DNA of 62,779 bases, the filler included, from Candidatus Tectimicrobiota bacterium (GTDB taxonomy: Bacteria > JACPSX01): NCBI GenBank assembly GCA_016193065.1. It is 7 parts of 7 records of this genome, joined end to end, with 100 filler letters (N's around TTAATTAATTAA, not from the genome) between each part and the next. Parts side by side here need not be neighbours in the genome. Positions count along the whole stretch, not along the records: positions 30,852 to 43,963 come from JACPSX010000087.1; 6 more parts are not named here. One strand, 5' to 3'. Shown here piece by piece: positions 4,010-57,760 of this stretch. The notes beneath the pieces were generated by a model. The model saw only the letters and a program-made list of their open reading frames with translations, did not search any database and was not told where the DNA came from. The translations under genes were made by a program, and so were the position numbers. The stretch's first letter is position 1. Each line of letters begins with the position of its first letter.

Positions 4010-4109
4010 CTTCCTGCTCAAAAGGGAAGCAAGACTCGATAGGGTTGCTGCGCATCAGGGTACGACGCAACGGCTTAGACACTTCAAGCCTATTAGAAGG
4101 AGGTGCTAA

Positions 4110-7198: not shown

Positions 7199-7217
7199 CT
7201 TCATTAGGAGAGATGAG

Positions 7218-9021: not shown

Positions 9022-10246
9022 CTCTTCCTCCTCGTTGGGAATCCGCGGTCCAGGCAGCTTCCTCCTTCGCATAGCCGTCCTGGCCGCAAAGCCTCTCCAC
9101 ATTGGGCCGCAATACCGGGGTGAGATACATCTGCTTGCGGGCGATGTATTCGGGATAGATGGCCAATCTCTCCCGGACCTGATAGCCGCATCCAGCCGTG
9201 CGTTCGTACAGCTCACGCAAGTGAGGCCACGGTGCCTCCGGATTGATATAGTCCTGGGTCAGCGGGGAGATCCCTCCCCAGTCGTTGATCCCGGCCGAAA
9301 TGAGCGTCGGGTAAGTGTCCGGGGTCAGGTTCGGAGGTGCCTGGAGATTCATTTCGCCTCCCAAGATGAGCCTGGCCACGGCGATCGTGCGTAAAAAATC
9401 CTCCAGCGTAGGATCGGGCCTATGACGCATGGGAATCGTGGGCTTGGCCCGGAAGTTCTGGATAATCACTTCCTGTATGTGCCCGTACCGCCGGTGCAGC
9501 CGGGCGATGGCGAGCAGTGAATCGACCCGCTCGGTCCAGGTTTCCCCGATGCCGATGAGAATCCCGGTCGTGAACGGAATGTTCAAGCGCCCCGCCTCTT
9601 CCAAAGTGCGTAGCCGCCGGGAGGGAACCTTATCGGGAGCCCTGTCGTGGGCTCCACCAGTTTCCAGCAAACGCGGGCTCACACTCTCCAGCATGAGACC
9701 TAGGCTCACGTTCACCTCCCGCAGCCTCCGCAAGTCCCGCGGTCCCATGAGACCCGGATTGGAATGCGGGAGAAGCGATGACTTCTCAATCACCAGGCGG
9801 CAAACGGCAGCCAGGTAGTCCAGTGTTCTGCGGAATCCGAGCCGCCGGAGTTCCTCCCGAGCCTCGGCAAACAGAGCCTCGGGCCGGTCTCCGAGACTGA
9901 AAAGGGCTTCCTTGCAACCCAATTCCGCCCCCCGGTTTACGACCTCCAAAACCTCATCAGGGGTCAGGGTCTTGGCTCCCACATCTCCAGGATCTTTGCG
10001 GAACGTGCAGTAGCCGCAGTAGTCCCGGCAAAGGTTCGTGAGGGGGATAAATACCTTGGGGGAATAGGTAATTGTCTTGCCCTTGTGCCGGTCGGCCAGT
10101 TCCCGCGCCGCTCTCAGCAAAGACGAAAACTCTTCCCCTTCCACGTCTGCCAGGAGAAGTGCCTCCTCCCGCGTGATCGTCTCCCCTTCTCCCGCCTTAC
10201 AGAGGATCTCTTCCACAGCCGGCTTGAACTTGACTGCGCTGGACAT
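9005..10246 (-). CDS. cofG: FO synthase subunit CofG (radical SAM)
   Basis: ITYSPKVFIPLTNLCRDYCGYCTF, EALFSLGDRPE, PHSNPG, PFTTGILIGIGE, QAPPNL, GINDWGGISP. Confidence 0.94.
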   Translation of the reverse strand: MSSAVKFKPAVEEILCKAGEGETITREEALLLADVEGEEFSSLLRAARELADRHKGKTITYSPKVFIPLTNLCRDYCGYCTFRKDPGDVGAKTLTPDEVLEVVNRGAELGCKEALFSLGDRPEALFAEAREELRRLGFRRTLDYLAAVCRLVIEKSSLLPHSNPGLMGPRDLRRLREVNVSLGLMLESVSPRLLETGGAHDRAPDKVPSRRLRTLEEAGRLNIPFTTGILIGIGETWTERVDSLLAIARLHRRYGHIQEVIIQNFRAKPTIPMRHRPDPTLEDFLRTIAVARLILGGEMNLQAPPNLTPDTYPTLISAGINDWGGISPLTQDYINPEAPWPHLRELYERTAGCGYQVRERLAIYPEYIARKQMYLTPVLRPNVERLCGQDGYAKEEAAWTADSQRGGRDARVV

Positions 10247-10259
10247 CTCTTCTCTTTCG

Positions 10260-10970
10260 TCAGTGACTCTTTTGCGAAAGCTGGGTACCCGGAAGCCGGG
10301 TGCCCACCGGCTTAAGCACGTGCGGTAATCCGCTGATCTCCACACATGCGGCTTTCACCCCATAGCGTCTGTTGATGCCGAGAAGAACCGCGGTCATTCC
10401 CTCCAGGAACACGGCGTTTTCCAGAGATCCCGCGTCGATGGCCCTCACCCCGAGCTCTCTTACGAGATCGAGAACAACTTGCTTCGCCCCGGCATCATCT
10501 CCGCACACCAGCGCGTCGCAATCGATTGGGTTCTCGGCTTCATCGTATCGATGAGCCGAAAGGTTGTGCAATGCCCCGACGACATTCACGTCCGGACCCA
10601 GGAGGGTCTGGGCTTCCTGTGCCGCCGAACCTTCCACGGGGAAAGCAAGCCGGGTCGGGTTTTGTGGGTGTAAGGGGACGGTGACATCAATCACCACCTT
10701 GCCCTGGACCCGATCCCGCATCTGCAACAACAGGCCACGATGCCCCCTGGAGGTAACAGCGAGAACGACCACTTCTCCTTTTTCCGCCGCTTCCTCGTTG
10801 GTTCCTCCCTCAAAACGCCCGCCCCGGATTTCCTGGGAAAGTTCCTCGGCAATACGGAGCGCCTTTTCACGCTGCCGCGAGCCAATGAAAATCGTGTTTC
10901 CCGCCAAGGCCCAGCGCCGGGCCAGAGCTTTGCCCTCCTTCCCCGTCCCTCCCAGAATGGCAATTTTCAT
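10260..10970 (-). CDS. npdG: NADPH-dependent F420 reductase (F420H2:NADP+ oxidoreductase, Fno)
   Basis: ILGGTGKEG.ALA.RWA, IGSR, DVTVPL, GSAAQEAQ, ALHNLSA, LVCGDD, INRRY. Confidence 0.92.
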   Translation of the reverse strand: MKIAILGGTGKEGKALARRWALAGNTIFIGSRQREKALRIAEELSQEIRGGRFEGGTNEEAAEKGEVVVLAVTSRGHRGLLLQMRDRVQGKVVIDVTVPLHPQNPTRLAFPVEGSAAQEAQTLLGPDVNVVGALHNLSAHRYDEAENPIDCDALVCGDDAGAKQVVLDLVRELGVRAIDAGSLENAVFLEGMTAVLLGINRRYGVKAACVEISGLPHVLKPVGTRLPGTQLSQKSH

Positions 10971-27074: not shown

Positions 27075-27174
27075 NNNNNNNNNNNNNNNNNNNNNNNNNN
27101 NNNNNNNNNNNNNNNNNNTTAATTAATTAANNNNNNNNNNNNNNNNNNNNNNNNNNNNNNNNNNNNNNNNNNNN
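27075..27174. other. artificial contig-join linker
   Basis: N44-TTAATTAATTAA-N44, stops in all six frames. Confidence 0.98.
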
Positions 27175-30751: not shown

Positions 30752-30851
30752 NNNNNNNNNNNNNNNNNNNNNNNNNNNNNNNNNNNNNNNNNNNNTTAAT
30801 TAATTAANNNNNNNNNNNNNNNNNNNNNNNNNNNNNNNNNNNNNNNNNNNN
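30752..30851. other. artificial contig-join linker
   Basis: N44-TTAATTAATTAA-N44. Confidence 0.98.
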
Positions 30852-31271
30852 ATCCACTGTGACTTCCGTGGCCATGGAGTTCGAGATCAGACAGTACTGC
30901 TTGGCTTTTTGCAGAAGCCTCCCGACCGGCTCCTGATCCTCAGGACGGGAGAGCCAGACTTTGGGAGTCAGGTGAATCCGGGTCATCTTGAATTTGCCGT
31001 CAACGAATTCCAAAGTTCCCTCTGCCTGACTTTCAAACCCGATGAGGTTGACCTTGGCCTTTTCGGCCAGATAGAGGAAGGTCGTCATGAAGCAGCCGTT
31101 GGCTGAGGCGACGTAGAGGTCCTCGGGGCTCCAGAACCCCTCGGGTCCACCAAACTCCGGCGGGGTGGCCACCGGCAAGTCCGGCTTTCCTGCGCTGGAG
31201 AGAAGTCCCTTCTTGCCGTCCTGCCAGTAGATTGAGGATTGGTAAACGTGAGTTTTTGCCTGGATGCTCAT
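30852..31271 (-). CDS. OsmC-family protein, 3'-truncated
   Basis: PPEFGG..G.WSPEDL..AS..GCFM, AKQYCLISNS (two conserved Cys). Confidence 0.88.
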
Positions 31272-31407
31272 GTCATCCTCCTGTCGGCTGTCCCCCTCGC
31301 CTGTAGTGAGCCCGTTTCAACCAAAAGGGTGCGCGGGAAGCAATTTCCTTGACTGCAAGGCAAGGGGTTCAGTACAAGAGAGAGGGGGCGGAAAAACGGG
31401 GAACCGG

Positions 31408-33302
31408 ATGAGAGAATTTTTCAAGCCTCGCGCTGTGGCCGTCGTCGGCGCTTCCCGCGTGGAAGGCAAGGTGGGCCACAGCATCCTGCTGAATCTCCTG
31501 CGCGGCGGTTTTCCCGGAGCCATTTATCCCATCAACCCCGGTTCCCCGGACATCCTTGGAGTCAAGGCGTATCCGGACGTCTCTGCAATTCCCGCAGAAA
31601 TTGATCTGGCCGTATTGGTCATTCCCGCACCCCAAATCCTATCGGCTCTGGAAGCCTGCGTGGCCAAGGGGGCCCGGGGGGCCGTCGTCATATCGGCCGG
31701 CTTCAAGGAGATCGGTGGAGAAGGAGCCGCCCTGGAGCGTGAGCTGAAAAAGTGCGCCCGGGAGCTCGGGATTCGAGTCCTGGGACCCAACTGTCTTGGA
31801 GTCATCTCAACTCAGGGGCGCCTGAACGCGAGTTTTTCCCCCGGTATGCCTCCCGAAGGAGGCATCGGTTTTTTTTCTCAATCAGGAGCCCTGGGGACGG
31901 CGATCCTGGATTGGGCCGTGGGGCAGCGGATCGGGCTCTCCAGGTTCTTGAGCCTCGGCAACAAAATGGACCTCTCCGAAGTGGACGCGGTGCGGGCCAT
32001 GGCCGAGGATCCGGACACGAAGGTGATCCTGGGTTATGTGGAGGGAATTGAGCAGGGGCGGGAGTTCATGGCAGCGGCCCTGGCCGCCTCCCGTAAAAAA
32101 CCCCTGATCATGTATAAAGCAGGAACCACCTCGGCGGGAGCCAGAGCGGCCTCCTCCCATACGGGGGCCCTGGTGGGCTCCGACAAGGCGGTGGAGGCGG
32201 CCTTCCGGCAATCCGGGGTTTTTCGAGTATATTCTCTGGAGGACCTCTTTGATCTGGCTCAGGCCTTCAGCTCCCAACCACTCCCCTCGGGGCCCCGCCT
32301 TTTGATCTTGACGAACGCGGGAGGTCCGGGGATCATCGCGGCCGACGCGGTCGAGAAGGCCCGGGTGGAGCTTGCCCGGCTCTCCGACGAAACCGTTGCC
32401 CGCTTGCGTCAGTTTATGCCCCCGACGGCGGCCCTTTATAATCCGGTGGACGTCATCGGAGACGCCCGGGCGGATCGCTATCAGAAGGCGCTGGAAGTGC
32501 TGCTGCCGGACCCCGGGGTGGACGGGGTCCTGGTTCTGTTGACTCCCCAGGCAATGACCGAGATTGACAAGACCGCGCAACTTATCGGGCAGGCGTCTGC
32601 GGCCTCGGGAAAACCGATTCTGACTTCCTTTATGGGGGAGGCCAGCATGGGAGAGGCCCGCGAGATTCTACGGCGCTATCACGTACCGGACTACCCATAT
32701 CCCGAAGAAGCCGTCAAGGCGTTTGAGGCGCTGGCTGTTTACCGGAGCCGGCGGGATTCTCCGAGCGAGCATCCCGTCACGTTTCCCTGCCGCGGGCAGG
32801 AGGCCAGGGAAAGGATCCGGAAGGCTCGAAGGCAAGGCAGAATCAATCTTGGAGAGTCCGAAGCCCGCTTTGTCGCCGAGGCCTTCGGTTTCCGGTTTCC
32901 GCGCAGCGTGGTCGCTCAGACGGCGGATGAAGCTGTCAACGCCGCGGAAGAGACGGGGTATCCCGTGGTGCTCAAGATCGTCTCTCCGGAGATTCTTCAC
33001 AAGACCGACGTGGGTGGGGTGAAAGTCGGCCTGCGTGGCCCGAAAGAGGTCCGTGAAGGGTTCCTGGAAATCACCACCCGCGTGAGACGCCTGTTTCCCG
33101 ACCCTTGCTGCTCGGAGTGCGAGGAGAGAAGCCTGCGGATCTGCAGGCCCTCGTTGAAAGCCTGCAGCGTCTCTCCCAGCTTGCTATGGAACTTCCCGAG
33201 GTTTTGGAGATGGATATCAATCCACTCATTGTCCGGCCGGCCGGAGAAGGTGCCGTGGCCATTGACGTGCGGATGTCGCTCGTCCACGAGGAGGCCCCAT
33301 GA
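31408..33302 (+). pseudogene. acetate--CoA ligase (ADP-forming), fused alpha-beta, with a deletion/frameshift near 33100 (possibly an assembly error)
   Basis: AVVGAS, GPNCLG, SQSGA, SLGNK.D, AASSHTGAL (phospho-His), TNAGGPG, NPVD, KIVSP.I.HKTDVGGV; C-terminal L.GVRG..D..EMDINPL in another frame. Confidence 0.88.
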
Positions 33303-34360
33303 AATCGCTATACATTGGTTCCACGGGAGATTATTCGGGAAAGACCCTGGTCACGATGGGGTTGGCGATGGCTCTGCAGAAACAGGGTTTTAGCGTCGGG
33401 TATCTGAAGCCTCTGGGAAGGCTCCCCATTGTTGTGGAAGGGGAAGCCGTTGACGGCGATGCGGAATTTCTCAAGAAGATCCTGCATCTGACGGATCCTC
33501 TGAGCCTGATCTCTCCTGTTGTCCTCACTCACGAGCTCGTCGTGCAGCACTACAAAGGGGCTCTGCCGGATCTGCTCCCGAAGGTGGTGGCGGCCCATGC
33601 CCAGGTCTCTCGGGACAAGGACCTGGTCCTGATCGGAGGAGCCGGGAATTTCATGGGAGGGACCTTTCTGGATCTGGAGATTACCCGGGTCTGCGAGGCC
33701 CTTGCTTCCCAGGTTCTACTGGTTGATTCTTCCGATCCGCAGCGCGGCTATGACGCGCTCTTTGTGGCGCGGGAGATCCTGGGAGACCGCCTGATCGGCG
33801 TGATCCTCAATCGGGTTTCCTCCTTACTGCATAACATGGTGGAGGAGATGGCGATTCCCTTCCTGACTAAGTCGGGGTTCCGGATCCTGGGTGTTCTCCC
33901 TCACGACCCGCTTCTTGACGCCATCACCGTAGGCCAGCTCCAGGAGCTGTTGGATGGGAAGATCCTGTGCGCCGCGGATCGACTGGATGAGCTGGTTGCC
34001 AACTTCAGCGTCGGGGCCATGGATCTGGACAAGGCCATGAGCTACTTTCGCAAGCTCCCCAACAAGGCCGTCATCACCGGAGCAAACCGTCCCGACCTGC
34101 AGCTTGCCGCTCTGGAGACAGCCACCAAATGCCTCATCCTCACCGGGAATCAATCTCCCAACGAGATCATTATTTCACGGGCCCGGGAGCTGCGGGTTCC
34201 CATCATCGTGGTCCCCTACGATACCTTCACGACGGTGGATCGGGTCGAGCATTTCATGGGCCGGATCCGCATCCGGGAGCAGCAGAAAGTGGAGAAGGCC
34301 CGCCAGCTTCTGGAAGAGCGCCTGGACTACCGCGCTCTCCTGCAGGCGCTGCAACTGTAG
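33299..34360 (+). CDS. phosphotransacetylase-family protein (BioD-like N-domain plus DRTGG domain)
   Basis: YSGKT..GL, GYLKP, VGAM, ITGANRPDLQLAALE, CLILTG; ATGA-coupled to the CoA ligase. Confidence 0.85.
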   Translation: MKSLYIGSTGDYSGKTLVTMGLAMALQKQGFSVGYLKPLGRLPIVVEGEAVDGDAEFLKKILHLTDPLSLISPVVLTHELVVQHYKGALPDLLPKVVAAHAQVSRDKDLVLIGGAGNFMGGTFLDLEITRVCEALASQVLLVDSSDPQRGYDALFVAREILGDRLIGVILNRVSSLLHNMVEEMAIPFLTKSGFRILGVLPHDPLLDAITVGQLQELLDGKILCAADRLDELVANFSVGAMDLDKAMSYFRKLPNKAVITGANRPDLQLAALETATKCLILTGNQSPNEIIISRARELRVPIIVVPYDTFTTVDRVEHFMGRIRIREQQKVEKARQLLEERLDYRALLQALQL

Positions 34361-34401
34361 CTGAGAGCCTAGAGCTAAGTGCTGAGGGCTGAGTGCCTAT
34401 T

Positions 34402-34427
34402 GTCATTCCCGCGCAGGCGGGAATGAC
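34402..34427. repeat. REP-like palindrome
   Basis: GTCATTCCCGC-GCAG-GCGGGAATGAC. Confidence 0.7.
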
Positions 34428-34564
34428 GAAAGCGCAGCAATTGTGACACCATATCCAAACGTCCCGAGTAATAATTTTCGATGCCAATGCCGTTGACGGG
34501 GGATGAAGACTGCGGTACAAGGGAGATTGTTCGGGCCGGGCCTGTTGCGGAGAAGGAGGGGGAA

Positions 34565-35158
34565 TTGGTCGATTCTTCGGATCAACAGATCATTGAGCGG
34601 GTCAATCAAGGCGATCCGGCCGCCTTTGAAGAACTCCTGGAACGATATGAAGAGAAGATCTTCCACTTCGGCATGCGCATGTGCGGCCAGGTGGAGGACG
34701 CCCGCGATTTGCTGCAGGAGACCTTCCTGAACGCCTTCCGGTACCTGAAGGGTTTTCGGGGGGAGGCCCAGTTCAAGAACTGGCTTTACAAGATCGCCAG
34801 CAGCGTGTGCATCAAGATGCGGCGCAAGGGGAAGTTCGAGCCGGACTTTGAAATTTCCCTTGACCAGCTTGTTCCCACGGAAGATGGAGAAGTCCCTCAG
34901 GAAATTCCCGATTGGGCTTTAGAGCCCCTGGAGAACGTGCTGAGCAAGGAGGTCCGCCGGCGCCTTTCGGAGGCTCTGGCCCTCCTTCCCAAGGAGTACC
35001 GCATTGTCCTGGTCCTGAGGGACATGGAAGGCTTTTCCACGGAAGAGACAGCGGAGACCCTGGGCATTAGCGAGGCGGCCGTCAAGTCGCGCTTGCACAG
35101 GGCGCGGCTGTTTGTGCGGCACAAGCTCCACGAGTATTTTCAAGGAAGGAAACCGTGA
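34565..35158 (+). CDS. ECF sigma-70 factor
   Basis: GD..AFEEL, DLLQETF, FKNWLYKIA, LP..YR.V.VLRDMEG.S..E.A..LG.S..AVKSRLHRAR; probable TTG start with AGGAGG RBS. Confidence 0.92.
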   Translation: MVDSSDQQIIERVNQGDPAAFEELLERYEEKIFHFGMRMCGQVEDARDLLQETFLNAFRYLKGFRGEAQFKNWLYKIASSVCIKMRRKGKFEPDFEISLDQLVPTEDGEVPQEIPDWALEPLENVLSKEVRRRLSEALALLPKEYRIVLVLRDMEGFSTEETAETLGISEAAVKSRLHRARLFVRHKLHEYFQGRKP

Positions 35159-35391
35159 TGGACGAGGGCTGCCGAAAACTCTTTGAGCGCATGTCGGAGT
35201 ACCTGGACGGCGAGCTTGATCTCAAGGAGCTGGCCGATATCGAGTCCCACCTGCATCTCTGTCATCACTGCGAGGCGTGCCTGGCGGCTCTGCGCCGCAC
35301 CATCGAGGTTTGCCGTTCGCACAGCGTCCCCTCCATGCCCACGGAAGTCCGCCGGGAACTGCACGAGCTGATTCGCAAAAACCTGTCTTGA
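35155..35391 (+). CDS. soluble zinc-finger (zf-HC2/ZAS) anti-sigma factor
   Basis: C...MSEYLDGEL...HLHLCHHC (HxxxCxxC); no TM helix; overlaps the sigma stop. Confidence 0.88.
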   Translation: MMDEGCRKLFERMSEYLDGELDLKELADIESHLHLCHHCEACLAALRRTIEVCRSHSVPSMPTEVRRELHELIRKNLS

Positions 35392-35548
35392 GCAAAGCCT
35401 GCCCTGAGCAGAGCCGAAGGGTCGAAGGACCTGCGCTGAGCTCCCTCTTGCTCCTCTTGTGAAAAATAATGCAACTGACCTATTGCACCACAGAACCCCT
35501 GGGCCAAGGTTAAAGGTGTAGCTGGAAGTATTTGATTTACTACAAGTT

Positions 35549-35562
35549 CTAGCGATCGCTCG
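35549..35562. promoter_or_regulatory. putative TetR operator
   Basis: near-perfect 14-bp palindrome CTAGCGATCGCTCG about 50 nt upstream of tetR. Confidence 0.45.
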
Positions 35563-35614
35563 GAAGTCCTGGGGGCGGGCGACTTCCGGTTCTCAGTCAC
35601 AATTGGCGGTAGTC

Positions 35615-36259
35615 ATGGAATACCAGGGTCGGTTGCAGGAAGTCCTGCGTCAGGCCGCAGCTCTCTTTTCCGAGAAAGGGTACCCGTCCGCTTCGATCCG
35701 GGACCTGTCGCGGGTTTCCGGCCGGAGCATGGCGGGCCTTTACTACTATTTCGCGGGGAAGGAGGAACTGCTCTACCGGATCTGCGCTCAAAGCCTCCAG
35801 GAGATTCTCGAGGAGCTCGACCGATCTCTACCCCAAATCGCCCCCCCTCAGGAAAAGCTCCGCTACCTCGTCGCGGTTCACCTGGACTATTTCCTCAACC
35901 ACCGGGACGAGATGCGGGTCCTCTCTCAGGATTCGGAATTTCTCCAGGGAGAGCATAAGGAAAAGCTGGCTGAGCAGCAAAAGGGCTATTACCTGCTCTG
36001 TCAACAGGTGTTGCGAGAGGTTTGGGAAGAAGCCGGAAGCGGCCAGGAGATTTCCCGAGAGGAGCTGCGGCTCTCGACCCTGGCCCTTTTCGGGATGATC
36101 AACTGGGTTTACAAATGGTACGAGCCGGGCAAGGACCTCTCCTCCAGAGATCTTGCGGACTGGATGACGCGGTTCTTTCTGGAAGGGTACCTGGGGAGCC
36201 CAGCAACTTCTCCGTTTCCGGAACAGAGTCTCCGGGGGATCGACAGTCGGATGGAATGA
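35615..36259 (+). CDS. TetR-family regulator (KstR2/PaaR-like C-terminus)
   Basis: AAALFSEKGY..ASIRDL...S.AGLYYYF.GKEELL; GMINWVYKWYEP. Confidence 0.92.
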   Translation: MEYQGRLQEVLRQAAALFSEKGYPSASIRDLSRVSGRSMAGLYYYFAGKEELLYRICAQSLQEILEELDRSLPQIAPPQEKLRYLVAVHLDYFLNHRDEMRVLSQDSEFLQGEHKEKLAEQQKGYYLLCQQVLREVWEEAGSGQEISREELRLSTLALFGMINWVYKWYEPGKDLSSRDLADWMTRFFLEGYLGSPATSPFPEQSLRGIDSRME

Positions 36260-36266
36260 ATCGGTC

Positions 36267-36290
36267 GGGCGCAATGAATTGCGCCCCTAC
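36267..36290 (-). repeat. GTAG-type REP palindrome
   Basis: GTAGGGGCGCAATTCATTGCGCCC on the minus strand. Confidence 0.7.
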
Positions 36291-36358
36291 TATAGATTCA
36301 CGTCCACAAAGCGACAGGTCTTGTTACGGGTTCCCGGCGGGGCAGAGGTCAACGGGCC

Positions 36359-37783
36359 ATGCAATCCAGCCAGTGTCCCGGGTTTCAAGGCTACAGACTC
36401 CATTTCGACGCGCCCAGCGAGTCCTTGCGCCGGCGCATTGACGACCATCCCTGTTACAGCGAGGAAGCACATTGCTTCTTTGCCCGAATTCATCTGGCCG
36501 TGGCGCCTCGCTGCAATGTTTTTTGCAACTACTGCAACCGCAAGTTTGACTGTCCCAACGAGAGCAGGCCTGGAGTTGCCAGCACGGTCTTAAACCCGAA
36601 AGAGGCCGTGAGGCAAGTTGAACTTGTCCTGGAGAGGGTTCCCTGGACTACGGTCGTGGGAATTGCCGGACCCGGGGATCCGCTGGCCAACCCCCAAGAA
36701 TCCCTACAGACCTTCCGGCTGGTGCACCGTGAATTTCCCGATCTGATGCTCTGCCTTTCGACGAATGGGCTCGCGCTAACGGACCACCTGGATGAACTCG
36801 TCGAATTGGGGGTCAGCCATGTCACTCTCACCATCAACATGGTTGACCCGGAGGTCGGCCGGAGCATTTACTCCTGGGTGCGCTATGGAGGCATTGTGTA
36901 TCGGGGGTGGGAGGGGGCTGAACTGCTTCGCATCCAGCAGATGCGGGCCCTCGAAGAGCTCCGTCGCCGGGATATTCTTACCAAGGTGAACATTGTCCTC
37001 ATTCCGGAGGTCAATGACTTCCATCTCCCGGAAGTCGTCAAGGAAGTTCAGAGAAGGGGAGCTTTTCTCGTCAACGTGATCCCGCTCCTTCTGGTTCCCG
37101 GGAGCAAGTTTGAGAAGCAAGAGGTCCGGGAGCCCAGCCTGGAGGAGCGGAGAGTCATTCAGGACCTTTGTGAACGGAAGCTGGGCGTGCAAGTCATGCG
37201 TCACTGCCGCCTGTGCCGGGCTGATGCCGCCGGATTTTTGGGACAACAAGAAGAGACAAGTCCACGACCTGCCCGGACTCCGCAAGATCGGGGAGCCTTC
37301 CTGGCAGAAGCGAGACGCCGGCGTGACCGGGTGCGCCGGGTCCGGGAAGAAGTTCTCGAAACTCTCGTCGTCCTGGATGGCCGATCCCTGCGGGTGGCCG
37401 TTGCCTCTCGGGGAGGGAGGCTTGTAAACGAACATTTCGGGAGGACCCGGGAGTTTTTAATCTTTGAGGTGACCTCCGGGGCCATCCGGCTCCTGGAGAT
37501 CCGGCCCGTGGCAGGATATTGCACTGGACCCCAGAGCTGCGGAGACGAACCACAAAGTCTTAGTTCCTTGATTTCTTTGCTGAGCGACTGCCACATGGTG
37601 CTGTGCAGTCGGATCGGGCTGGATCCGGTCAAGGCTTTGAGGCAGGCAGGCATACGTCCCGTAGAAGCTTACGGTTTCATTGACCGGGCCATCGCCGGCG
37701 CCGTCAGCGCCCACGTAGGGGTACCCGCCGGAAACTACGTCACTGCAGGGAAGGAGGTTGATGAGCCATCGGGGAATCTCTAG
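36359..37783 (+). CDS. nifB: nitrogenase cofactor biosynthesis radical SAM protein NifB with C-terminal NifX-like domain
   Basis: HPCYS..AH..FARIHLAVAP.CNVFCNYCNRKFDCPNESRPG, GIAGPGDPLAN, LCLSTNGL, HCRLCRADA, VAVAS.GG.LVNEHFG. Confidence 0.95.
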   Translation: MQSSQCPGFQGYRLHFDAPSESLRRRIDDHPCYSEEAHCFFARIHLAVAPRCNVFCNYCNRKFDCPNESRPGVASTVLNPKEAVRQVELVLERVPWTTVVGIAGPGDPLANPQESLQTFRLVHREFPDLMLCLSTNGLALTDHLDELVELGVSHVTLTINMVDPEVGRSIYSWVRYGGIVYRGWEGAELLRIQQMRALEELRRRDILTKVNIVLIPEVNDFHLPEVVKEVQRRGAFLVNVIPLLLVPGSKFEKQEVREPSLEERRVIQDLCERKLGVQVMRHCRLCRADAAGFLGQQEETSPRPARTPQDRGAFLAEARRRRDRVRRVREEVLETLVVLDGRSLRVAVASRGGRLVNEHFGRTREFLIFEVTSGAIRLLEIRPVAGYCTGPQSCGDEPQSLSSLISLLSDCHMVLCSRIGLDPVKALRQAGIRPVEAYGFIDRAIAGAVSAHVGVPAGNYVTAGKEVDEPSGNL

Positions 37784-37844
37784 CCAGTTAGACCGCGAAG
37801 CGAAGGTTGGGGGGCCGTAAAACAGAGAAGGGAGGTGGAGAAAG

Positions 37845-38699
37845 ATGCCGCCGGCAATGAGACAAATCTCGATCTACGGAAAGGGAGGGGTAGGAAAATC
37901 CACGGTTGCCAGCAACACCTCGGTCGCCCTGGCGGAAATGGGCCGCCGGGTCATGCAGATGGGATGTTCTCCGAAAGCCGACTCGACCTATCTGTTGTTG
38001 GGTCACATGTGTCACCCCACAGTCCTCGATCAGGTCCGGGCCAAAGGCTATCGCAAACCCGAGTACATCGATGAGTGCCTGCAGATCGGGCACAAGGGGA
38101 TCGTGTGCGCCGAGGCGGGGGGGCCCGAACCTGCTCTGGGCTGCGCGGGGCGCGGGGTTTTGTTGGTCCTGGAACTGCTGCGCAAGTATCGTCTTCCGGA
38201 AAAGCACGAGGTGGATTTCCTGGTCTTCGATGTCATTGCGGACGTGGTCTGCGGCGGGTTTGCCCAGCCCATCCGCAGGGGGTATGCCAAGGAAACCTAT
38301 ATTGTCACCAGCGGGGAGCTCATGGCTCTGTACGCGGCCAACAACATCTGTAATGCGGTGAAGACCATGAACGAGCTCAAGGGGGCCCAGGTTTTCGTGG
38401 GTGGGCTCATCAACAACATGCGCGGGGTTCCCGGAGAGTTGGAGTTGGTGAGGGAGTTCGGGGAGATCATCGGAGTTCCGGTGGTTGCCAACATCCCCCA
38501 TTCCGATCTGATGCAGCGCGCGGAAACCCAGAAAAAGACTCTGGTGGAGAATTTCCCGGATTCCGCAGAGGCCCAGGAATTCCGCAGCTTTGCCCAACAG
38601 ATCCTGGAACCCCGGGGGATTATTCCCCAGCCGCTGGACCCCAAGGACAGTATTTCGGTAATTCGAGACCTCCTACGGAAGTACCAGGTCTTCGATTGA
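37845..38699 (+). CDS. NifH-like nitrogenase-family Fe protein 1
   Basis: YGKGGVGKST, GCSPKADST, EAGGPEP..GCAGRGV, FDVIADVVCGGFAQPIR, SGELMALYAANNI. Confidence 0.93.
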   Translation: MPPAMRQISIYGKGGVGKSTVASNTSVALAEMGRRVMQMGCSPKADSTYLLLGHMCHPTVLDQVRAKGYRKPEYIDECLQIGHKGIVCAEAGGPEPALGCAGRGVLLVLELLRKYRLPEKHEVDFLVFDVIADVVCGGFAQPIRRGYAKETYIVTSGELMALYAANNICNAVKTMNELKGAQVFVGGLINNMRGVPGELELVREFGEIIGVPVVANIPHSDLMQRAETQKKTLVENFPDSAEAQEFRSFAQQILEPRGIIPQPLDPKDSISVIRDLLRKYQVFD

Positions 38700-38713
38700 G
38701 GGAGGTGAACGCC

Positions 38714-39613
38714 ATGATTGAACGATTTGAAGTCCCCAAGGAAGTGCCGCGCAAGATCGCTATTTACGGCAAGGCCGGCATTGGCAAGTCCATTACCTCC
38801 TCTCACATCAGCGCCGCCCTCTCGGAGATGGGGGAGAAGGTGGGTCTCATGCAAGTGGGCTGCGATCCCAAGCGGGATTCCATCGCCCTGCTGTGCGGGG
38901 GGATCATGCCTACAGTCCTGGAAAAGCTGCGCATGATCGAGAGCGACAGCCTGGGCGACGAAGATACGGGACCTGTGGAGCTGACCGACGTGAAACTCGA
39001 CGAGGTGATCTTCTCGGGTTACAACGGCATCGTGTGCTGCGAGGCCGGGGGGCCGAGGCCGGGGATGGGCTGCGCCGGGCGCGGGGTCCTGGTAGCCATC
39101 AACATCCTGGACGAGTTCAAGGTCTACGAGCGCAACAACGTGGGGTTTGCGATCTTTGACGTGCTGGGGGACGTGGTTTGCGGCGGGTTCGCCCAGCCCA
39201 TGCGGGCCGGGCAGGCTCACGAAATCTACATCGTCACTTGCGGCGAGATTCTGGCCCTCTACATCAGCAACGAGATCATGAGAGCGGTGAACCGGATCCG
39301 CAGCGAGGGGGTCAACGTGGGGCTGGCGGGGCTCATTGACAATCAGCGCAACGTCCCCTTCGAGAGGGAAATCGTGGAGGAGTTTGCCCGCCGCACCGGG
39401 GTTCCCGTCATTCTGCACGTGCCCAGGTCCCCCAAGGTCCAGGAGGCCGAGATCATGTGCAAGACCGTGATCGAGGCCTTTCCGGAGTCGGATCAGGCGT
39501 TGGTCTACCGGTCTCTGGCCAGGAAAGTGTATGAGAACCAGTACATTTACGCGCCCGCACCCCTAAACGGGCTCGATGAGGTGGTTGATGTGGTCCGCAC
39601 CTACATCCATTAG
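38714..39613 (+). CDS. NifH-like nitrogenase-family Fe protein 2
   Basis: YGKAGIGKSI, GCDPKRDS, EAGGPRPG.GCAGRGV, FDVLGDVVCGGFAQPMR; GGAGG RBS at 38701. Confidence 0.93.
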   Translation: MIERFEVPKEVPRKIAIYGKAGIGKSITSSHISAALSEMGEKVGLMQVGCDPKRDSIALLCGGIMPTVLEKLRMIESDSLGDEDTGPVELTDVKLDEVIFSGYNGIVCCEAGGPRPGMGCAGRGVLVAINILDEFKVYERNNVGFAIFDVLGDVVCGGFAQPMRAGQAHEIYIVTCGEILALYISNEIMRAVNRIRSEGVNVGLAGLIDNQRNVPFEREIVEEFARRTGVPVILHVPRSPKVQEAEIMCKTVIEAFPESDQALVYRSLARKVYENQYIYAPAPLNGLDEVVDVVRTYIH

Positions 39614-39660
39614 CCCTGAGAAATCGTTCTTCTCTGATCGATCAGGGGAAAGGAGGAGAG

Positions 39661-41301
39661 ATGAACTGGCCTGTCTGTGACCAAGTCATGCCATGGGATA
39701 AGGTGGATCGCACCCGGGAGCCCTGGGAGATTGCCCGGGACTACCTGGAGATGCGTGCCAAGAAACAGTTTGAGATCGTCACCTTCAGGGATTTGCTGGA
39801 GAAGACGGAAGACACGGCAGCCTCGGACTGGTGGGAAAAAATCGTCCCCGGATACGGCAGCGGGCTCTGGTGCCCCGCTTATTATTCGATCCAGACCTGG
39901 GCCGGGTTGCCCAACTCCGTCGTGGTCTTCCACGGACCGACCCACTGCGTTTCCGCGGCCCGCTTTTTCCAGATCTCCTACGGCGGCGGCGGGGGCGGAA
40001 GCTACTACTGGGGCGGTCCGTTCTGTTTTGTCCCCAGCACGGAGATGAACGAGCGGGACGCGATCCTTGGGGCTCCCGAGAAGCTCAAGAAAGCGATCCT
40101 GGAGATCGATGCAGTGGCCAAGCCGGAGATCATCATCGTGGCGCCGGCCTGCGCCCCCAGCATGATCGGAGAGCCCATGGAGGAGGTCATCGAAGACGTG
40201 CGGGGGCAGATTCAGTCCGAGATCATCTTCGTGGATGCGCCGGGGTTTAAGTGCATTGACGAAGGAGACATGATCCGGTTGGTCACCAGCAAGTACTGCA
40301 CCGACTTAATGGAAGAACCCAAGACCAAGGACAAAGGGGCGGTCAATGCGGTGGGGGATTGGCGCACAAGCGCCTGGGAGGAGCGCTACGGCGTCAAGTG
40401 CAATTTCCCAACGGCCTACGATGAGCTGAACAGGATCCTCAAGAGGATGGGCCTCAAGCTGAAGACGGTTCTGCCGCAGGCCCCGCTGGCGGACATCCGG
40501 CGGGCTCCCGAGGCGGAGTTCAACGTCTGCACCTGCCCCATGTTTGCCTACCCGATCTGCGAGGAGATGAAAGCCAAGTTCGGTGTCCCGTACAGCAACC
40601 ACGTGTACCCCCTGGGGATAGAAGCAACCCGAAACTACATCATGGCCATCGCGGACTTCTTCGGCAAACAAAACGAGGCGGAAGCTCTCCTACGGGAGGA
40701 GTTTGGGAAGCTTCAGCCCTTGTGGGACGAGGCCAGGAGAAAGATCGCCGGCAAGGTGGCCCTCATGGATTCTTCCATCGCCATGACTTCCGTGAACCGG
40801 CAGATGGGTTATGCACGCATGCTCATCGAGTTGGGGATCGAGGACGTGATCTTCTTCAACATCGCCCCCTCGGAAGTTCTGGGCCGCAGGGAAGGGGTCG
40901 AATACTACCTGAGCCAGACGATCAATGGAGTTCCCTACAACCCCAAGTTCCTCTGGTGGCCGGCTCCCCACGCCATCAAGTTAAGTCCTGTGGAGGTCAT
41001 GGAATTCCTGGGCTTGAAGCCGCAAGATGTCCTCTACCTGTACGGAGATCTGGGGTGGTATGCCAAGGCTCCCGACATCGATCCCGCCAACACGGCCCAG
41101 GTGCAATCGGGGATCCACTGGCGCAGGCGCCGCAACGTGTGCTCCCGGTCCATCTTCTTTAGCGGCATCCGGGGGCTCTTGCGGGACATCATCAATGCGG
41201 TGAATACTTCTAGCCGCGGCAGGAACTTCACCCTCTATGGCCGGGTCATCGGGGAGTGGGCCATTGGGGATGGGGCTGCCGGAGCTGCGGAAAGGGGGTG
41301 A
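39661..41301 (+). CDS. nitrogenase component-1 family, alpha (NifD-like) subunit, highly divergent
   Basis: WCPAY..(25)..HGPTHC, STEMNERDAILG..EKL..AI, PACAPSMIG, APGF, AEFNVCTCP, GVPY..PLGIEAT. Confidence 0.88.
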   Translation: MNWPVCDQVMPWDKVDRTREPWEIARDYLEMRAKKQFEIVTFRDLLEKTEDTAASDWWEKIVPGYGSGLWCPAYYSIQTWAGLPNSVVVFHGPTHCVSAARFFQISYGGGGGGSYYWGGPFCFVPSTEMNERDAILGAPEKLKKAILEIDAVAKPEIIIVAPACAPSMIGEPMEEVIEDVRGQIQSEIIFVDAPGFKCIDEGDMIRLVTSKYCTDLMEEPKTKDKGAVNAVGDWRTSAWEERYGVKCNFPTAYDELNRILKRMGLKLKTVLPQAPLADIRRAPEAEFNVCTCPMFAYPICEEMKAKFGVPYSNHVYPLGIEATRNYIMAIADFFGKQNEAEALLREEFGKLQPLWDEARRKIAGKVALMDSSIAMTSVNRQMGYARMLIELGIEDVIFFNIAPSEVLGRREGVEYYLSQTINGVPYNPKFLWWPAPHAIKLSPVEVMEFLGLKPQDVLYLYGDLGWYAKAPDIDPANTAQVQSGIHWRRRRNVCSRSIFFSGIRGLLRDIINAVNTSSRGRNFTLYGRVIGEWAIGDGAAGAAERG

Positions 41302-41307
41302 GGAGAA

Positions 41308-42684
41308 ATGCCGGTCATCGAGAAAAAAATGCGCACGGCGAACGACGCGTTCCAGCCCAGCGCCATGATGGGAGCCGTCCTGGCCCTGTCGGGAATCGAG
41401 GGCGTGGAAATCGCCTTTCACGGGCCTTCGGGGTGTTACACCATTGCTGGGCACTATCGCACCGATCAGGCCCCCATGGGAGTCTATTCCTCCATGCGTC
41501 CCAGTGGAGTAACGGAAGACAATCTGGTCATGGGGACCAGCATGGAGAAGCTGAGCCAGCTCATCAAGTTCATGAAGATGACCTTCAAGAAGGACCGCTC
41601 GCGGCTGTTCGCGATCGTCAACACGGACTCTACGGCGATCACGGGTGATGACATCTTGGGCGCGGCGCGGCGCTTCGAGAAGGAGATGGGGTTTCCCGCC
41701 ATTGCGGTAGATGCCCCTGGATTCAAGGGGTGGGACGTGGTGGGATATGACCTTTCCTACCGGGCCTTGCTCGGGAAGTTTGCCCCCGGGGATTCCTTGG
41801 CGAAGATTCCCGACAGCGTCAACATCATCGCCCCCTATATGCTGCACTCCCAGAACTGGATCTTCGACTTCGAGGAGATCAGGAGCCTCTTGGCCAGACT
41901 GGGAATCCGGATCAACTGCGTTCTCACTCGAAATACCCGCATCGAGGACATCAAAAACTTCAGCGCGGCCCAGTGGAACCTGCACCTGAGCGCCGAGGAT
42001 TTTCCAAGCTTCCAGAAGGAGGCCGACCGGCTGGCGGTGCCCTCTTTCGGCGCGGATCTCCCCTTGCCTTACGGGATCGCCAACACGGAGGCCTGGTTCC
42101 TGGGGGTGGCCCGGCAGTTCGGCAAAGAGGAGAAAGCGCGAGAAATCCTGACCGAGGACAGCAAGCGGGTCAAGTCCATCCTGGGGTTCAACTACACTTA
42201 CACCTGGCTGGCGAACCTTCTGATGCAGAAGAGGGTGGCGGTTATCGGCCGCGAGAAGTTTGCCGCCAGCATCGCCCGCGCGCTGTTCTACGACTTCGAT
42301 GCCTATCCCGACGTGGTAATCCTCCAGGGTTCCGGCCGCTCTGCCTTTGAACGCTCCAAGGCCCTGCTGGCGGACATTGAAAAGGACGGGTATTCCGTCA
42401 AGATCATGGAGAACCCGTCCTATATCGAAGTGGCCCGCCTGATCCAGGAGAGCGAGGTTGACTTCGTCATCGGCTCCCGGATCGAGAAGCCGCTCATCGA
42501 GGGGATGCGGTTCCCTCACCTGAGCCTGGGGAGCGCAGGCTACTTCCAGAGCTTCCGGTTTGTCCCCTACCCCTATGTGGGCTACAACGGGGTCCTCTAC
42601 CTTCTCCAGGAGTTGGGGCTGGTGATGCACGACATGATGACCGAGAAGGAGATGTGGCGAGGCCTGCGCTTCAAGAACATTTGA
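41308..42684 (+). CDS. nitrogenase component-1 family, beta (NifK-like) subunit, highly divergent
   Basis: GAVLAL.GI...FHGPSGC, TEDNLVMG, TAITGDDI, APGFKG, VNII, LPYGIANT..W, DFVIGS..E, PYVGYNG. Confidence 0.88.
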   Translation: MPVIEKKMRTANDAFQPSAMMGAVLALSGIEGVEIAFHGPSGCYTIAGHYRTDQAPMGVYSSMRPSGVTEDNLVMGTSMEKLSQLIKFMKMTFKKDRSRLFAIVNTDSTAITGDDILGAARRFEKEMGFPAIAVDAPGFKGWDVVGYDLSYRALLGKFAPGDSLAKIPDSVNIIAPYMLHSQNWIFDFEEIRSLLARLGIRINCVLTRNTRIEDIKNFSAAQWNLHLSAEDFPSFQKEADRLAVPSFGADLPLPYGIANTEAWFLGVARQFGKEEKAREILTEDSKRVKSILGFNYTYTWLANLLMQKRVAVIGREKFAASIARALFYDFDAYPDVVILQGSGRSAFERSKALLADIEKDGYSVKIMENPSYIEVARLIQESEVDFVIGSRIEKPLIEGMRFPHLSLGSAGYFQSFRFVPYPYVGYNGVLYLLQELGLVMHDMMTEKEMWRGLRFKNI

Positions 42685-42711
42685 ATCCGAACGGCCCCGT
42701 GGGCCCGCGCC

Positions 42712-42765
42712 AGACCCTGTCCGGGAGACCCGATTCGGGACATCCCGGGCAGGGTCTTGCTTTTT
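42712..42765 (+). terminator. rho-independent terminator closing the nitrogenase-like operon
   Basis: AGACCCTGTCCGGGA...TCCCGGGCAGGGTCT stem followed by TGCTTTTT. Confidence 0.7.
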
Positions 42766-42871
42766 ACGGGATGTTCTCCTCAGGATTCCAGGGCGCTGGA
42801 ACATATGCAGATTGATTTTCGGACGGCATCTGTGTAGTATAAGAAAAGCCTTGATGAGGCGGAGAGCGACG

Positions 42872-43144
42872 ATGATTTGCATTGATCACACGGTTCAGAT
42901 TTGGCAAGAGGGGGACACCTATGTCGCCCACGCTCATCCTCTGGATGTCATGAGCTGTGGCGAATCCCCTGAGGAGGCCCGTCGGAATTTGGAAGAAGCG
43001 GTCCGCCTTTTCTTGAAGGTGGCTGAAGAGCAGGGGACCTTAGAGGAGGTCCTTCGTGAGGCTGGTTATATCCTCAAGGACCACCACTGGAGCGCTCCCG
43101 AAATCATTTCCTCAGAGCGCGTTTCCCTCTCGCTTTCGGCGTAA
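42872..43144 (+). CDS. hicB: HicB-family antitoxin
   Basis: WQEGDTYVA....LDVMSCGESPEEARRNLEEAVRLFL. Confidence 0.85.
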   Translation: MICIDHTVQIWQEGDTYVAHAHPLDVMSCGESPEEARRNLEEAVRLFLKVAEEQGTLEEVLREAGYILKDHHWSAPEIISSERVSLSLSA

Positions 43145-43374
43145 TGCCGAAGATCACCCCAACCCACTGGTCTGTTCAGGAGAAGATCTTCCAGGCGGAT
43201 GGATTTATTTTTGTTCGCCAGGAGGGGAGCCACCGCGCCTATATAAAGCCTGGAATCCCCAGGCCTGTCATTATTCCCGTGTATCGGGAGGTTCCTGTCT
43301 CCATCATTCGAAATAATATGAAAACTGCCGGGATGACCCGCGAGCGCTATTTTAGCCTGCTGGCCCAGGTCTAG
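43144..43374 (+). CDS. hicA: HicA-family toxin
   Basis: GF.FVRQEGSH..Y.KPG..RPVIIP; TAATG overlap with hicB. Confidence 0.88.
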   Translation: MPKITPTHWSVQEKIFQADGFIFVRQEGSHRAYIKPGIPRPVIIPVYREVPVSIIRNNMKTAGMTRERYFSLLAQV

Positions 43375-43425
43375 TTCGAAGGACCTCGGGCACAAATTTT
43401 GGATGCTCCCCGCCTACCCTGCGGA

Positions 43426-43455
43426 TTGACCGGATCACCTGAGAGGGGATACAAT
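43426..43455 (+). promoter_or_regulatory. putative sigma70 promoter
   Basis: TTGACC-N18-TACAAT upstream of the VKOR gene. Confidence 0.5.
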
Positions 43456-43508
43456 ACCGTGGAGTTTTCTGGGTGGGGAACCGACGAGCGTAAGTTAGGA
43501 TTGGCCTA

Positions 43509-43963
43509 GTGAACGAGAACCGCTGGCCGTTGCAGGGGATTCTGGTGTTGGCGCTGGCCGGGGTGGGAGTCAGTTCCTATCTCTCCTACCTGGACGTGCA
43601 GATCTCCAGAGCTCCCAACAAGGCCTTTTGCAGCATCTCCCAGCTCTTCTCCTGTGACGTGGTCATTCGCAGCCCTTACGCCCATTTCTTCGGCATCCCC
43701 GTGGCCTATCTGGGGGTGGCCGGGTTTCTGCTGTTTTTGATCCTGGCGGTATGGGCCCTCGCTTGCCGGGATCGTTCAACGACACGCTGGCCAATTTTGG
43801 GATTGGTGAGCCTGTCCTGGATCGCCCTGGTATTTGAATGTTATTTAACCTCGGTGGAAGCTTTTGTCCTCAAAACGTTTTGTCCGTACTGCCTGACGGT
43901 TTTCGCATTCATTATTGCTATTTTCCTGTTATCCTTGCGGGCGACCTCCCGGGTTCCGAGCAC
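43509..43963 (+). CDS. vitamin K epoxide reductase (VKOR) family disulfide-bond protein, 3'-truncated
   Basis: CSIS...SCD.V..SPYA..FGIPVA.LG, CPYC. Confidence 0.9.
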
Positions 43964-44063
43964 NNNNNNNNNNNNNNNNNNNNNNNNNNNNNNNNNNNNN
44001 NNNNNNNTTAATTAATTAANNNNNNNNNNNNNNNNNNNNNNNNNNNNNNNNNNNNNNNNNNNN
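43964..44063. other. artificial contig-join linker
   Basis: N44-TTAATTAATTAA-N44. Confidence 0.98.
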
Positions 44064-47206: not shown

Positions 47207-47617
47207 CTAGGGTTTCCGCACGACTGCTCTCGGAACGCTTTCCTGCTCGGGAAGGACCGGAACCGGAGAATTGATTTCCCGGTCCAGTCTTGCCTGGGCG
47301 ATGCTGCCCGGGGCCCGATCCGGATCCATGCTTTCGGCGACGGGGGCGCTGCCCGTGAACGCGACTTCTGGCGAGCGGATCTCCCGGTCCAATCTCGCCT
47401 GGGCAATGCTGCCCGGGGCCTGGTTCTCGCGATTCCAGGCCGTGCTCTCTTGCCCCGTATACGCAGGAACCGCCGGAGAATTGATTTCCCGATCCAGCCT
47501 TGCCTGGGCAATGCTGCCCGGAGCCCGATCCGGGTTGTCTTGTGCGTGCGCGACGGTGACGCCGAGAAAGAGGATCGAAACCGCCGCCAAACCCATCAGA
47601 ATTGTTCCCCTCTTCAT
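47207..47617 (-). CDS. secreted protein with three APGSIAQARLDREI repeats
   Basis: Sec signal ending AHA/QD; AGGAGG RBS; three repeats with synonymous variation. Confidence 0.8.
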   Translation of the reverse strand: MKRGTILMGLAAVSILFLGVTVAHAQDNPDRAPGSIAQARLDREINSPAVPAYTGQESTAWNRENQAPGSIAQARLDREIRSPEVAFTGSAPVAESMDPDRAPGSIAQARLDREINSPVPVLPEQESVPRAVVRKP

Positions 47618-48999: not shown

Positions 49000-49099
49000 N
49001 NNNNNNNNNNNNNNNNNNNNNNNNNNNNNNNNNNNNNNNNNNNTTAATTAATTAANNNNNNNNNNNNNNNNNNNNNNNNNNNNNNNNNNNNNNNNNNNN
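49000..49099. other. artificial contig-join linker
   Basis: N44-TTAATTAATTAA-N44. Confidence 0.98.
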
Positions 49100-52826: not shown

Positions 52827-52926
52827 NNNNNNNNNNNNNNNNNNNNNNNNNNNNNNNNNNNNNNNNNNNNTTAATTAATTAANNNNNNNNNNNNNNNNNN
52901 NNNNNNNNNNNNNNNNNNNNNNNNNN
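52827..52926. other. artificial contig-join linker
   Basis: N44-TTAATTAATTAA-N44. Confidence 0.98.
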
Positions 52927-57660: not shown

Positions 57661-57760
57661 NNNNNNNNNNNNNNNNNNNNNNNNNNNNNNNNNNNNNNNN
57701 NNNNTTAATTAATTAANNNNNNNNNNNNNNNNNNNNNNNNNNNNNNNNNNNNNNNNNNNN
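57661..57760. other. artificial contig-join linker
   Basis: N44-TTAATTAATTAA-N44. Confidence 0.98.

Follow-up and report, generated by a model that had tools for sequence, protein, structure and literature searches.

The sequence analysed here (the window) is a stretch of 62,779 nt from Candidatus Tectimicrobiota bacterium (GTDB lineage Bacteria; assembly GCA_016193065.1), in which parts of seven records are joined, and the subject of this work is an open reading frame (ORF) at 41308-42684 that encodes a nitrogenase-related protein. The window is divided into contigs by paired 44-base N runs at 27075-27174, 30752-30851, 43964-44063, 49000-49099, 52827-52926 and 57661-57760. The ORF lies on the piece 30852-43963 (JACPSX010000087.1, contig C45), a 13-kb contig of a 2.9-Mb, 86%-complete genome; only the genes of this piece are physically linked to it, those past the N marks not being its neighbours. 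On C45 five genes, all on the plus strand, form a tight operon. The first gene encodes NifB (36359-37783), which comprises a radical SAM and a C-terminal NifX-like domain (Pfam Radical_SAM and Nitro_FeMo-Co). It is followed by the genes of two NifH-like Fe protein paralogs, H1 (37845-38699) and H2 (38696-39613), whose reading frames share 4 nt, then by an alpha-type gene (NifD/NifE-type, 39661-41301) and by the ORF itself, a beta-type gene (NifK/NifN-type) encoding 458 amino acids. The gap between the alpha and beta genes is 6 nt, and a purine-rich, GGAGG-like stretch lies just 5′ of the beta ORF. Directly 5′ of the operon there is a gene for a TetR-family regulator (35603-36259, plus strand; Pfam TetR_N and TetR_C_24).

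The product of the beta ORF is a member of Pfam family PF00148 (Oxidored_nitro), with a score of 194.7 bits (cut-off 28.6) and a match extending over profile positions 1-394 of 399. The cut-offs of the true nitrogenase beta subunits were not reached (nifK 52.5 vs 427.3 bits, anfK 61.6 vs 853.85, vnfK 54.6 vs 873.95), nor were those of nifN (25.4 vs 326.8; the solved NifN, 3pdi_B, was matched with E = 1.8e-4), BchB (79.6 vs 490.35) and BchZ (41.4 vs 529). The alpha subunit (PF00148, 170.5 bits) likewise did not reach any equivalog cut-off, and the top NCBIfam match of both subunits was nifE, with 95.1 and 89 bits, far under 505.1. In phmmer comparisons with proteins of solved structure the beta ORF scored 59.7 bits with AnfK, 57.2 with MarD, 57.1 with fused NifEN, 52 with NifE and 42 with BchB (48 with MarK). 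The near-equal scores with AnfK, MarD, NifEN, NifE and BchB place it on a deep branch within the superfamily. An AlphaFold2 monomer model of the protein (pLDDT 82.2, pTM 0.85; low confidence near Cys43, with a mean pLDDT of 56 for residues 41-50) had beta chains as its top Foldseek matches: AnfK (8boq_B, TM score 0.76) and NifK (4wes_B, TM score 0.75). A swapped assignment of the two subunits was ruled out, because the best structural matches of the ORF are beta chains and because it is the partner that holds the Cys275-type cysteine. ORF 41308-42684 is best explained as the beta-subunit gene of a stand-alone reductase of the nitrogenase-like (NFL) kind.

In NifK, VnfK and AnfK the beta subunit provides three P-cluster cysteines (PMC13474568). 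The protein encoded by the beta ORF has Ser18 (codon AGC, 41359-41361) at the position of NifK Cys70, Cys43 (TGT, 41434-41436) at that of Cys95 and Asp107 (GAC, 41626-41628) at that of Cys153, that is, one retained thiolate; Gly138 (GGA, 41719-41721) occupies the position of NifK Ser188. All four codons are on the plus strand. The initial annotation of this gene had claimed these replacements, placing a Ser 25 residues before the retained cysteine of HGPSGC, the Asp of NTDSTAITGDD at NifK Cys153 and a Gly at the Ser188 position, and it had stated that the alpha subunit keeps all three of its cysteines. These assignments were borne out. Three independent alignments (phmmer, MAFFT with annotated references and a MAFFT alignment of 166 sequences) agree on the residue equivalences, which are sequence-level equivalences without residue-level three-dimensional superposition. 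In the phmmer alignments with the solved AnfK and MarD the Asp of 'ntdstaitgdd' stands opposite the Cys of 'ttcsteiigdd' and 'atscptaiigdd'. When aligned by MAFFT with NifK of Rhizobium johnstonii and VnfK of Nostoc, Ser18 is opposite the Cys of 'KACQPLGAV', Cys43 is opposite 'HGSQGC' and Asp107 is opposite the Cys of 'STTCMAEVIGDD'. Ser18, Cys43 and Asp107 fall in identical columns of the 166-sequence alignment, and the distance from Ser18 to Cys43 is indeed 25 residues. Gly138 was found as claimed, but it is not diagnostic, since the Ser188 position varies (Ala in R. johnstonii NifK, Ser in Nostoc VnfK).

We also looked for other cysteines at these positions, and found none. The whole beta protein has two cysteines, Cys43 and Cys204, and these two columns are the only conserved cysteine columns over 22 family members; realignment therefore cannot restore the missing thiolates or a three-cysteine site. 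Judged from its placement in a domain-II strand, Cys204 would be far from the interface.

The family comprises the window protein and 21 orthologs (P0001-P0021), with 55-92% identity. Asp107, Cys43 and Gly138 are each present in 22/22 members, and Ser18 is present in all 19 members that cover the site, the other three being N-terminally truncated; the Ser and the Asp are thus conserved among orthologs, a point that the initial annotation had singled out for checking. Intact ORFs, conservation over the 22 orthologs and a conserved operon order ruled out a pseudogene or decaying copy. The operon order nifB-H1-H2-alpha-beta was also found in genome contigs whose labels read Cloacimonadota, Eiseniibacteriota and 'uncultured Eubacteriales', and in metagenome contigs. 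The beta gene was absent from the one same-genus genome searched (91% complete) and from 39 more distant genomes: the NFL system is patchily distributed.

A profile search of 1.84 billion representatives yielded 194 proteins with E ≤ 1e-30. From the 166-sequence alignment 14 of 172 database proteins were left out because of their length (<380 or >600 amino acids), and the clade tree was built with 7 of the 21 close orthologs, leaving out the partial or frameshifted beta genes (L006, L007, L033, L045, L047, L049, L050, L051; numbers prefixed by L denote related loci) and the distant L054-L056. In the trees the family is nested in a well-separated clade of 59 analysed sequences. Cys43 is invariant across the clade (59/59). 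At sites 18, 43 and 107 the pattern is Gly-Cys-Asp in 25 members, Ser-Cys-Asp in 20, Gly-Cys-Cys in eight, Cys-Cys-Cys in five and Gly-Cys-Thr in one. Thus, site 18 is Gly in 34/59 members, whereas site 107 is Asp in 45, Cys in 13, Thr in one and nothing else, with at least five changes on the tree. The pattern Cys-Cys-Cys was found in the outgroups NifK, VnfK and the Nostoc gene at the vnfN position with its relatives, and also in the basal clade member P0026. The root state of the clade is ambiguous by parsimony, and some inner nodes are poorly supported.

The three P-site cysteines of the alpha subunit are Cys71 (39871-39873), Cys96 (39946-39948) and Cys164 (40150-40152), at the positions of NifD Cys62, Cys88 and Cys154, respectively. 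A fourth cysteine, Cys292 (40534-40536), is at the cofactor-ligand position, NifD Cys275 or NifE Cys250. In the alignment with NifD, NifE and VnfD all four columns are invariant (all codons are on the plus strand). By our own count, the three P-site cysteines are kept in 37/37 clade loci covering them, and 8/37 clade loci form a subclade with Thr or Met at the Cys275-equivalent position. Its alpha subunits have retained all three P-site cysteines, its beta subunits still show Gly-Cys-Asp, and no NifB was found within the fetched flanks of its loci. The loss of the Cys275-type cysteine, paired with the lack of NifB in the flanks, fits a tie between that cysteine and the NifB product. Loci assigned to the Thr/Met subclade are L015, L018, L019, L021, L023, L025, L027, L034 and L050.

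Some further features of the alpha subunit were noted. A conserved Gly-rich stretch after Cys96 (residues about 100-125) and a conserved C-terminal motif (residues about 486-500, with His486, four Arg and Cys494) are absent from the aligned NifD, NifE and VnfD. Cys300, eight residues past Cys292, is kept in five aligned orthologs. A metagenome protein of 853 amino acids (P0194) joins a NifH domain to an alpha-type PF00148 domain with 67% identity to the alpha subunit of the window; it is either a natural fusion of Fe protein and alpha subunit or a read-through gene call.

The NifB of the operon scored 505.7 bits with NCBIfam TIGR01290 (cut-off 343.65) and is thus a true equivalog; on this assignment it is the predicted maker of the L-cluster, [8Fe-9S-C]. 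It is the sole NifB match in the genome. By our own count, NifB is upstream in 7/7 family loci that hold sequence before H1, in addition to the window. In the whole 86%-complete genome the PF00148 genes number two, as do the strong NifH-like genes, and NifB occurs once; all five are inside the operon, and no other nitrogenase-family client for NifB was found in it.

H1 (PF00142, 290.5 bits) and H2 (PF00142, 281.2 bits) both score below the nifH cut-off (303.7 vs 394.35 for H1, about 300 vs 394 for H2). H1 has kept the P-loop and both cluster cysteines, with Ser replacing the Asp of NifH 'GCDPK'. H2 also has both cluster cysteines, and its P-loop is changed to 'GKAGIGKSI' in the window and in two aligned family orthologs. 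Changes that complement each other in this way suggest that the Fe protein is an obligate heterodimer. In tblastn searches of orthologous loci with the window H1 and H2, each matched the gene of the other at about 43-48% identity. The adjacent H1-H2 pair accompanies alpha and beta in 24/53 related loci by our own count. The pair was recorded in the window and in L003-L008, L011, L012, L015, L021, L023-L025, L027, L028, L030 and L031, and further in L033, L034, L040, L042-L044, L046 and L048.

Among known systems the ligand pattern is closest to that of NifEN. A 2026 report on NifEN by cryo-electron microscopy (cryo-EM; PMC13031127) describes an [Fe4S4] O-cluster on NifE Cys37, Cys62 and Cys124 with NifN Cys44 alongside, an L-cluster on NifE Cys250, the equivalent of Cys275, and electron flow that starts at NifH and reaches the L-cluster by way of the O-cluster. 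NifN of R. johnstonii has Ser, Cys and Ala at the NifK Cys70, Cys95 and Cys153 positions (MAFFT), and in a PDB search with residues 14-61 of the beta protein, which matched NifN alone, Ser19 and Cys44 of A. vinelandii NifN paired with Ser18 and Cys43 (E about 1, used for the pairing only). The system described here thus shares with NifEN the three alpha cysteines, a lone beta cysteine where NifK has Cys95, the Ser at the Cys70 position, the cofactor cysteine at the Cys275 position, a residue other than His at the His442 position (PMC13031127) and dependence on NifB. It differs from NifEN by scores far below the cut-offs given above, by Asp instead of Ala at the Cys153 position, by its two dedicated NifH paralogs and by a distinct alpha C-terminal tail. 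NifN acts beside a nitrogenase that it serves, whereas none was found in this 86%-complete genome, where both PF00148 genes belong to the operon.

COR (BchY/BchZ) and DPOR (BchN/BchB) are described by North and Shafaat (PMC13474568) as having an interface [4Fe-4S] with three alpha cysteines and one beta residue; this residue, an Asp in DPOR and a Cys of BchZ implicated by mutagenesis in COR, is in both cases at the NifK Cys95 position. The beta position used by all known [4Fe-4S] members is therefore precisely the one that this protein has kept as Cys. Cys43 agrees with the lone beta cysteine of BchZ; DPOR differs, as its ligand at this position is the Asp of BchB/ChlB and the Asp of the present protein is at the Cys153 position. 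DPOR and COR are not known to have a NifB partner. They also differ in the Cys275/His442 region, for which the same source (PMC13474568) reports no conserved cofactor-coordinating residues.

Three further NFL groups were compared. The methylthio-alkane reductase MarBHDK (Group IV-C) resembles our system in that its operon has a NifB-type maturase, in its L-like cluster on a Cys275-type cysteine and in being a stand-alone NFL enzyme whose hosts need not fix nitrogen (PMC13753814, PMC13474568). MarDK differs in having six-cysteine P-cluster ligation and a His ligand (PMC13474568, PMC13753814), along with a single MarH, as opposed to the 3+1 cysteines of the present alpha/beta pair, and the solved MarD and MarK score just 57 and 48 bits against our beta subunit. 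The isethionate reductase IsrDK (Group IV-F) and Group VI NFL proteins have at most four cysteines at the six P-site positions, and are hence predicted to hold a [4Fe-4S] (PMC13474568). However, IsrDK with its one alpha and three beta cysteines is the mirror image of the present system and is described as devoid of cofactor ligands, and Group VI is described as having neither NifB nor equivalents of Cys275 and His442 (PMC13474568). Here NifB is adjacent and alpha Cys292 is present; the non-His residue in the His442 column agrees with Group VI.

One beta thiolate and three alpha thiolates, a true NifB and alpha Cys292 together make a [4Fe-4S]-type relay combined with a NifB-derived cluster a reasonable assignment. 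We infer, with a probability of roughly 0.55, a NifEN/COR-type relay that feeds an L-like cluster on alpha Cys292 in an enzyme with a substrate of its own. The interface cluster would most likely be a [4Fe-4S] with alpha Cys71, Cys96 and Cys164 and beta Cys43 as ligands, and not an [8Fe-7S] P-cluster. An Fe protein, possibly the H1/H2 heterodimer, would transfer electrons to it in an ATP-driven step; the next acceptor would be a cofactor resembling the L-cluster, [8Fe-9S-C], which the co-encoded NifB would supply and alpha Cys292 would hold, and there the substrate would be reduced. Asp107 is under strong constraint and probably tunes the interface cluster or ligates it transiently. The initial annotation had likewise suggested a [4Fe-4S] relay with a NifB-derived cluster. 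That part is supported by the 3+1 cysteines, NifB and Cys292, but its analogy with DPOR was positionally wrong, the DPOR Asp being at the Cys95 position.

The surroundings of the sister loci bear on the possible substrate. In L011 genes for an enoyl-CoA hydratase, an aldehyde:ferredoxin oxidoreductase and a 3-hydroxyacyl-CoA dehydrogenase are upstream, and amidohydrolase_2 and Liv-type ABC transporter genes are downstream. L046 is flanked by genes for an acyl-CoA dehydrogenase, three enoyl-CoA hydratases, NifB and a thiolase, and L027 by a molybdopterin oxidoreductase set, an AMP-binding (AMP-forming) ligase and UbiD. Such acyl-CoA and aromatic-type catabolic genes around the sister loci suggest that CoA esters or organic acids are the substrates of an ATP-driven reductase; for the wider clade this is a hint, drawn from gene content, at organic acid or CoA-ester substrates.

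The ligand pattern could be read in other ways. The interface might hold a P-cluster-like 8Fe or another non-standard cluster with mixed sulfur and oxygen (S/O) ligation, in which Asp107 would take over from the Cys153-type thiolate and Ser18, within this family, from that of the Cys70 type. The exchange of Cys (TGY) for Asp (GAY) takes two base changes, and its repeated occurrence at a site that is invariably Asp in the family and otherwise admits Cys and a single Thr would point to selection for a ligand-capable side chain. Ser18, too, is found in every family member covering the site, and ligation of a [4Fe-4S] by the oxygen of an Asp is established in DPOR (PMC13474568). But Gly at site 18 in more than half of the clade (34/59) means that most Asp107 forms would leave one Fe of the second cubane without a protein ligand, which also weakens the O-ligated P-cluster that the initial annotation had offered as an option. 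NifN likewise has Ser at site 18, yet its O-cluster is [Fe4S4] (PMC13031127), and no mixed S/O cluster was seen in the solved family members found by the phmmer and Foldseek searches. Conservation at the Cys153 position need not indicate a ligand: BchB has a Cys there, while its ligand is the Asp at the Cys95 position (PMC13474568). On balance we consider a mixed S/O cluster unlikely, although not as unlikely as the following two readings. An enzyme of the DPOR/COR type, in which the interface [4Fe-4S] itself reduces an organic substrate, no L-cluster is present and NifB and Cys292 are dispensable or otherwise used, would agree with the Thr/Met subclade, whose core machine apparently works without a Cys275-type site, and with the catabolic genes of the sister loci, which fit an organic substrate. 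It agrees poorly with a NifB gene that is adjacent wherever upstream sequence is available in the family, with the invariance of alpha Cys292 in the family, and with a genome in which NifB has no other nitrogenase-family client. This reading appears less probable still.

The alpha and beta proteins might, alternatively, be a NifEN-like cofactor scaffold or maturase that passes the NifB product to another protein. In favour of this are the NifN-like beta pattern, the lack of His in the His442 column and nifE as the top match of both subunits, albeit at scores far under its cut-off. Moreover, the nearest annotated plasmid relative is a Nostoc gene that follows vnfD, vnfK and another component-1 gene, that is, in the place of vnfEN (27% identity, E = 5e-30). 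No recipient was found, however: the 86%-complete genome has these two PF00148 genes only, and a second alpha/beta pair was not seen in the fetched related loci with the queries used. The operon has two Fe-protein genes of its own, and NifEN itself is reported to reduce substrates (PMC13031127), so scaffold-like ligands are compatible with catalysis. A scaffold function is, in our judgement, the least probable of these alternatives, with a slim chance of being correct.

Several points weigh against the preferred reading, a [4Fe-4S] relay feeding an L-like cluster. The predicted identity of the interface cluster derives from a homology-based count of ligands. For a filler residue, Asp107 is conserved far too well, and NifN has Ala there; the restriction of site 107 to Asp, Cys and Thr through at least five changes is ligand-like behaviour, and a larger or mixed-ligand cluster is possible. 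By cryo-EM, NifN Cys44 is hydrogen-bonding and not ligating (PMC13031127), so even the NifEN precedent is not a clean four-cysteine site. In the alpha subunit the NifD His442 column is Gly and lies within a poorly aligned C-terminal domain, which leaves the cofactor site only half defined. Finally, C45 is a 13-kb contig of a metagenome-assembled genome, the same-genus genome lacks the gene, and membership of the contig in this genome is assumed, not proven. A bolder combination would be a free-standing catalytic NifEN relative with its own substrate, driven by the H1/H2 heterodimer, in which Asp107 is a true carboxylate ligand of a mixed S/O-ligated interface cluster. We regard this as unlikely to hold. 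If it did, the interface cluster would be of a kind unseen in any solved family member, and the repeated Cys/Asp exchange would be the mark of electron relays that switch naturally between the P type and the 4Fe type.

Whether nitrogenase originated from maturase-like proteins with simpler clusters is a question raised in nitrogenase evolution (PMC8890362), and the initial annotation had presented the present protein as an intermediate architecture relevant to it. This view did not hold up. NifEN, which had not been considered, already combines a site of 3+1 cysteines with a cluster made by NifB, and the Cys-Cys-Cys outgroups together with basal P0026 indicate that the one-cysteine (Ser/Asp) state is most simply a derived loss, a simplification and not an ancestral stage. 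The finding is not evidence of an ancestral intermediate; the tree suggests secondary loss. Its interest lies chiefly in a NifEN-like system that occurs naturally on its own and has a conserved Asp.

What is new is an uncultured, stand-alone family whose ligand set resembles that of NifEN, an Asp that is strictly conserved in the family and alternates with Cys (and one Thr) across relatives, and two paired NifH paralogs. In the available parts of the literature, which include PMC13474568, PMC13753814, 10.1101/765248, 10.64898/2026.08.20.746119, PMC8890362 and PMC13031127, we found no published description of a NifB-linked NFL system in which two NifH paralogs accompany a beta subunit of the Ser/Gly-Cys-Asp pattern; the supplementary trees and alignments of PMC13753814 and 10.1101/765248 may hold members of the clade. 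The family widens the range of NFL ligand patterns, for which six Cys, 3 Cys + Asp, 1+3 Cys and at most four Cys without NifB are listed in PMC13474568. A widespread natural 3+1 site in a stand-alone system that has a NifB of its own would serve well for probing the capabilities of an L-cluster enzyme that has no P-cluster, and the close relatives with five or six cysteines are built-in controls.

The nearest annotated plasmid relatives are on a plasmid of Nostoc sp. C057 (L010), where two 'nitrogenase component 1' genes (7071-10335) follow vnfD and vnfK, at the place where vnfEN would sit. They have 27% identity with the beta subunit (tblastn, E = 5e-30) and 25% with the alpha subunit, and the beta-like gene keeps all three cysteines. 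For one set of vanadium maturases an early-diverging origin is mentioned in PMC8890362.

The flanks of the loci of the beta family have in common just a regulator, which is of the TetR family in the window; upstream of the operon in four related loci (L003, L004, L005 and L028) an HTH-GNAT gene takes its place. In L028 a DDE transposase gene (2888-4186) lies between nifB and H1. In L033 the beta gene (2755-4136) was matched in two pieces abutting at 2958, which suggests a frameshift or a sequencing error. On another contig piece of the window, and unrelated to the operon, an ORF of 136 amino acids on the minus strand (47207-47617) contains a motif ('PGSIAQARLDREI.SP') of about 20 residues in three copies.

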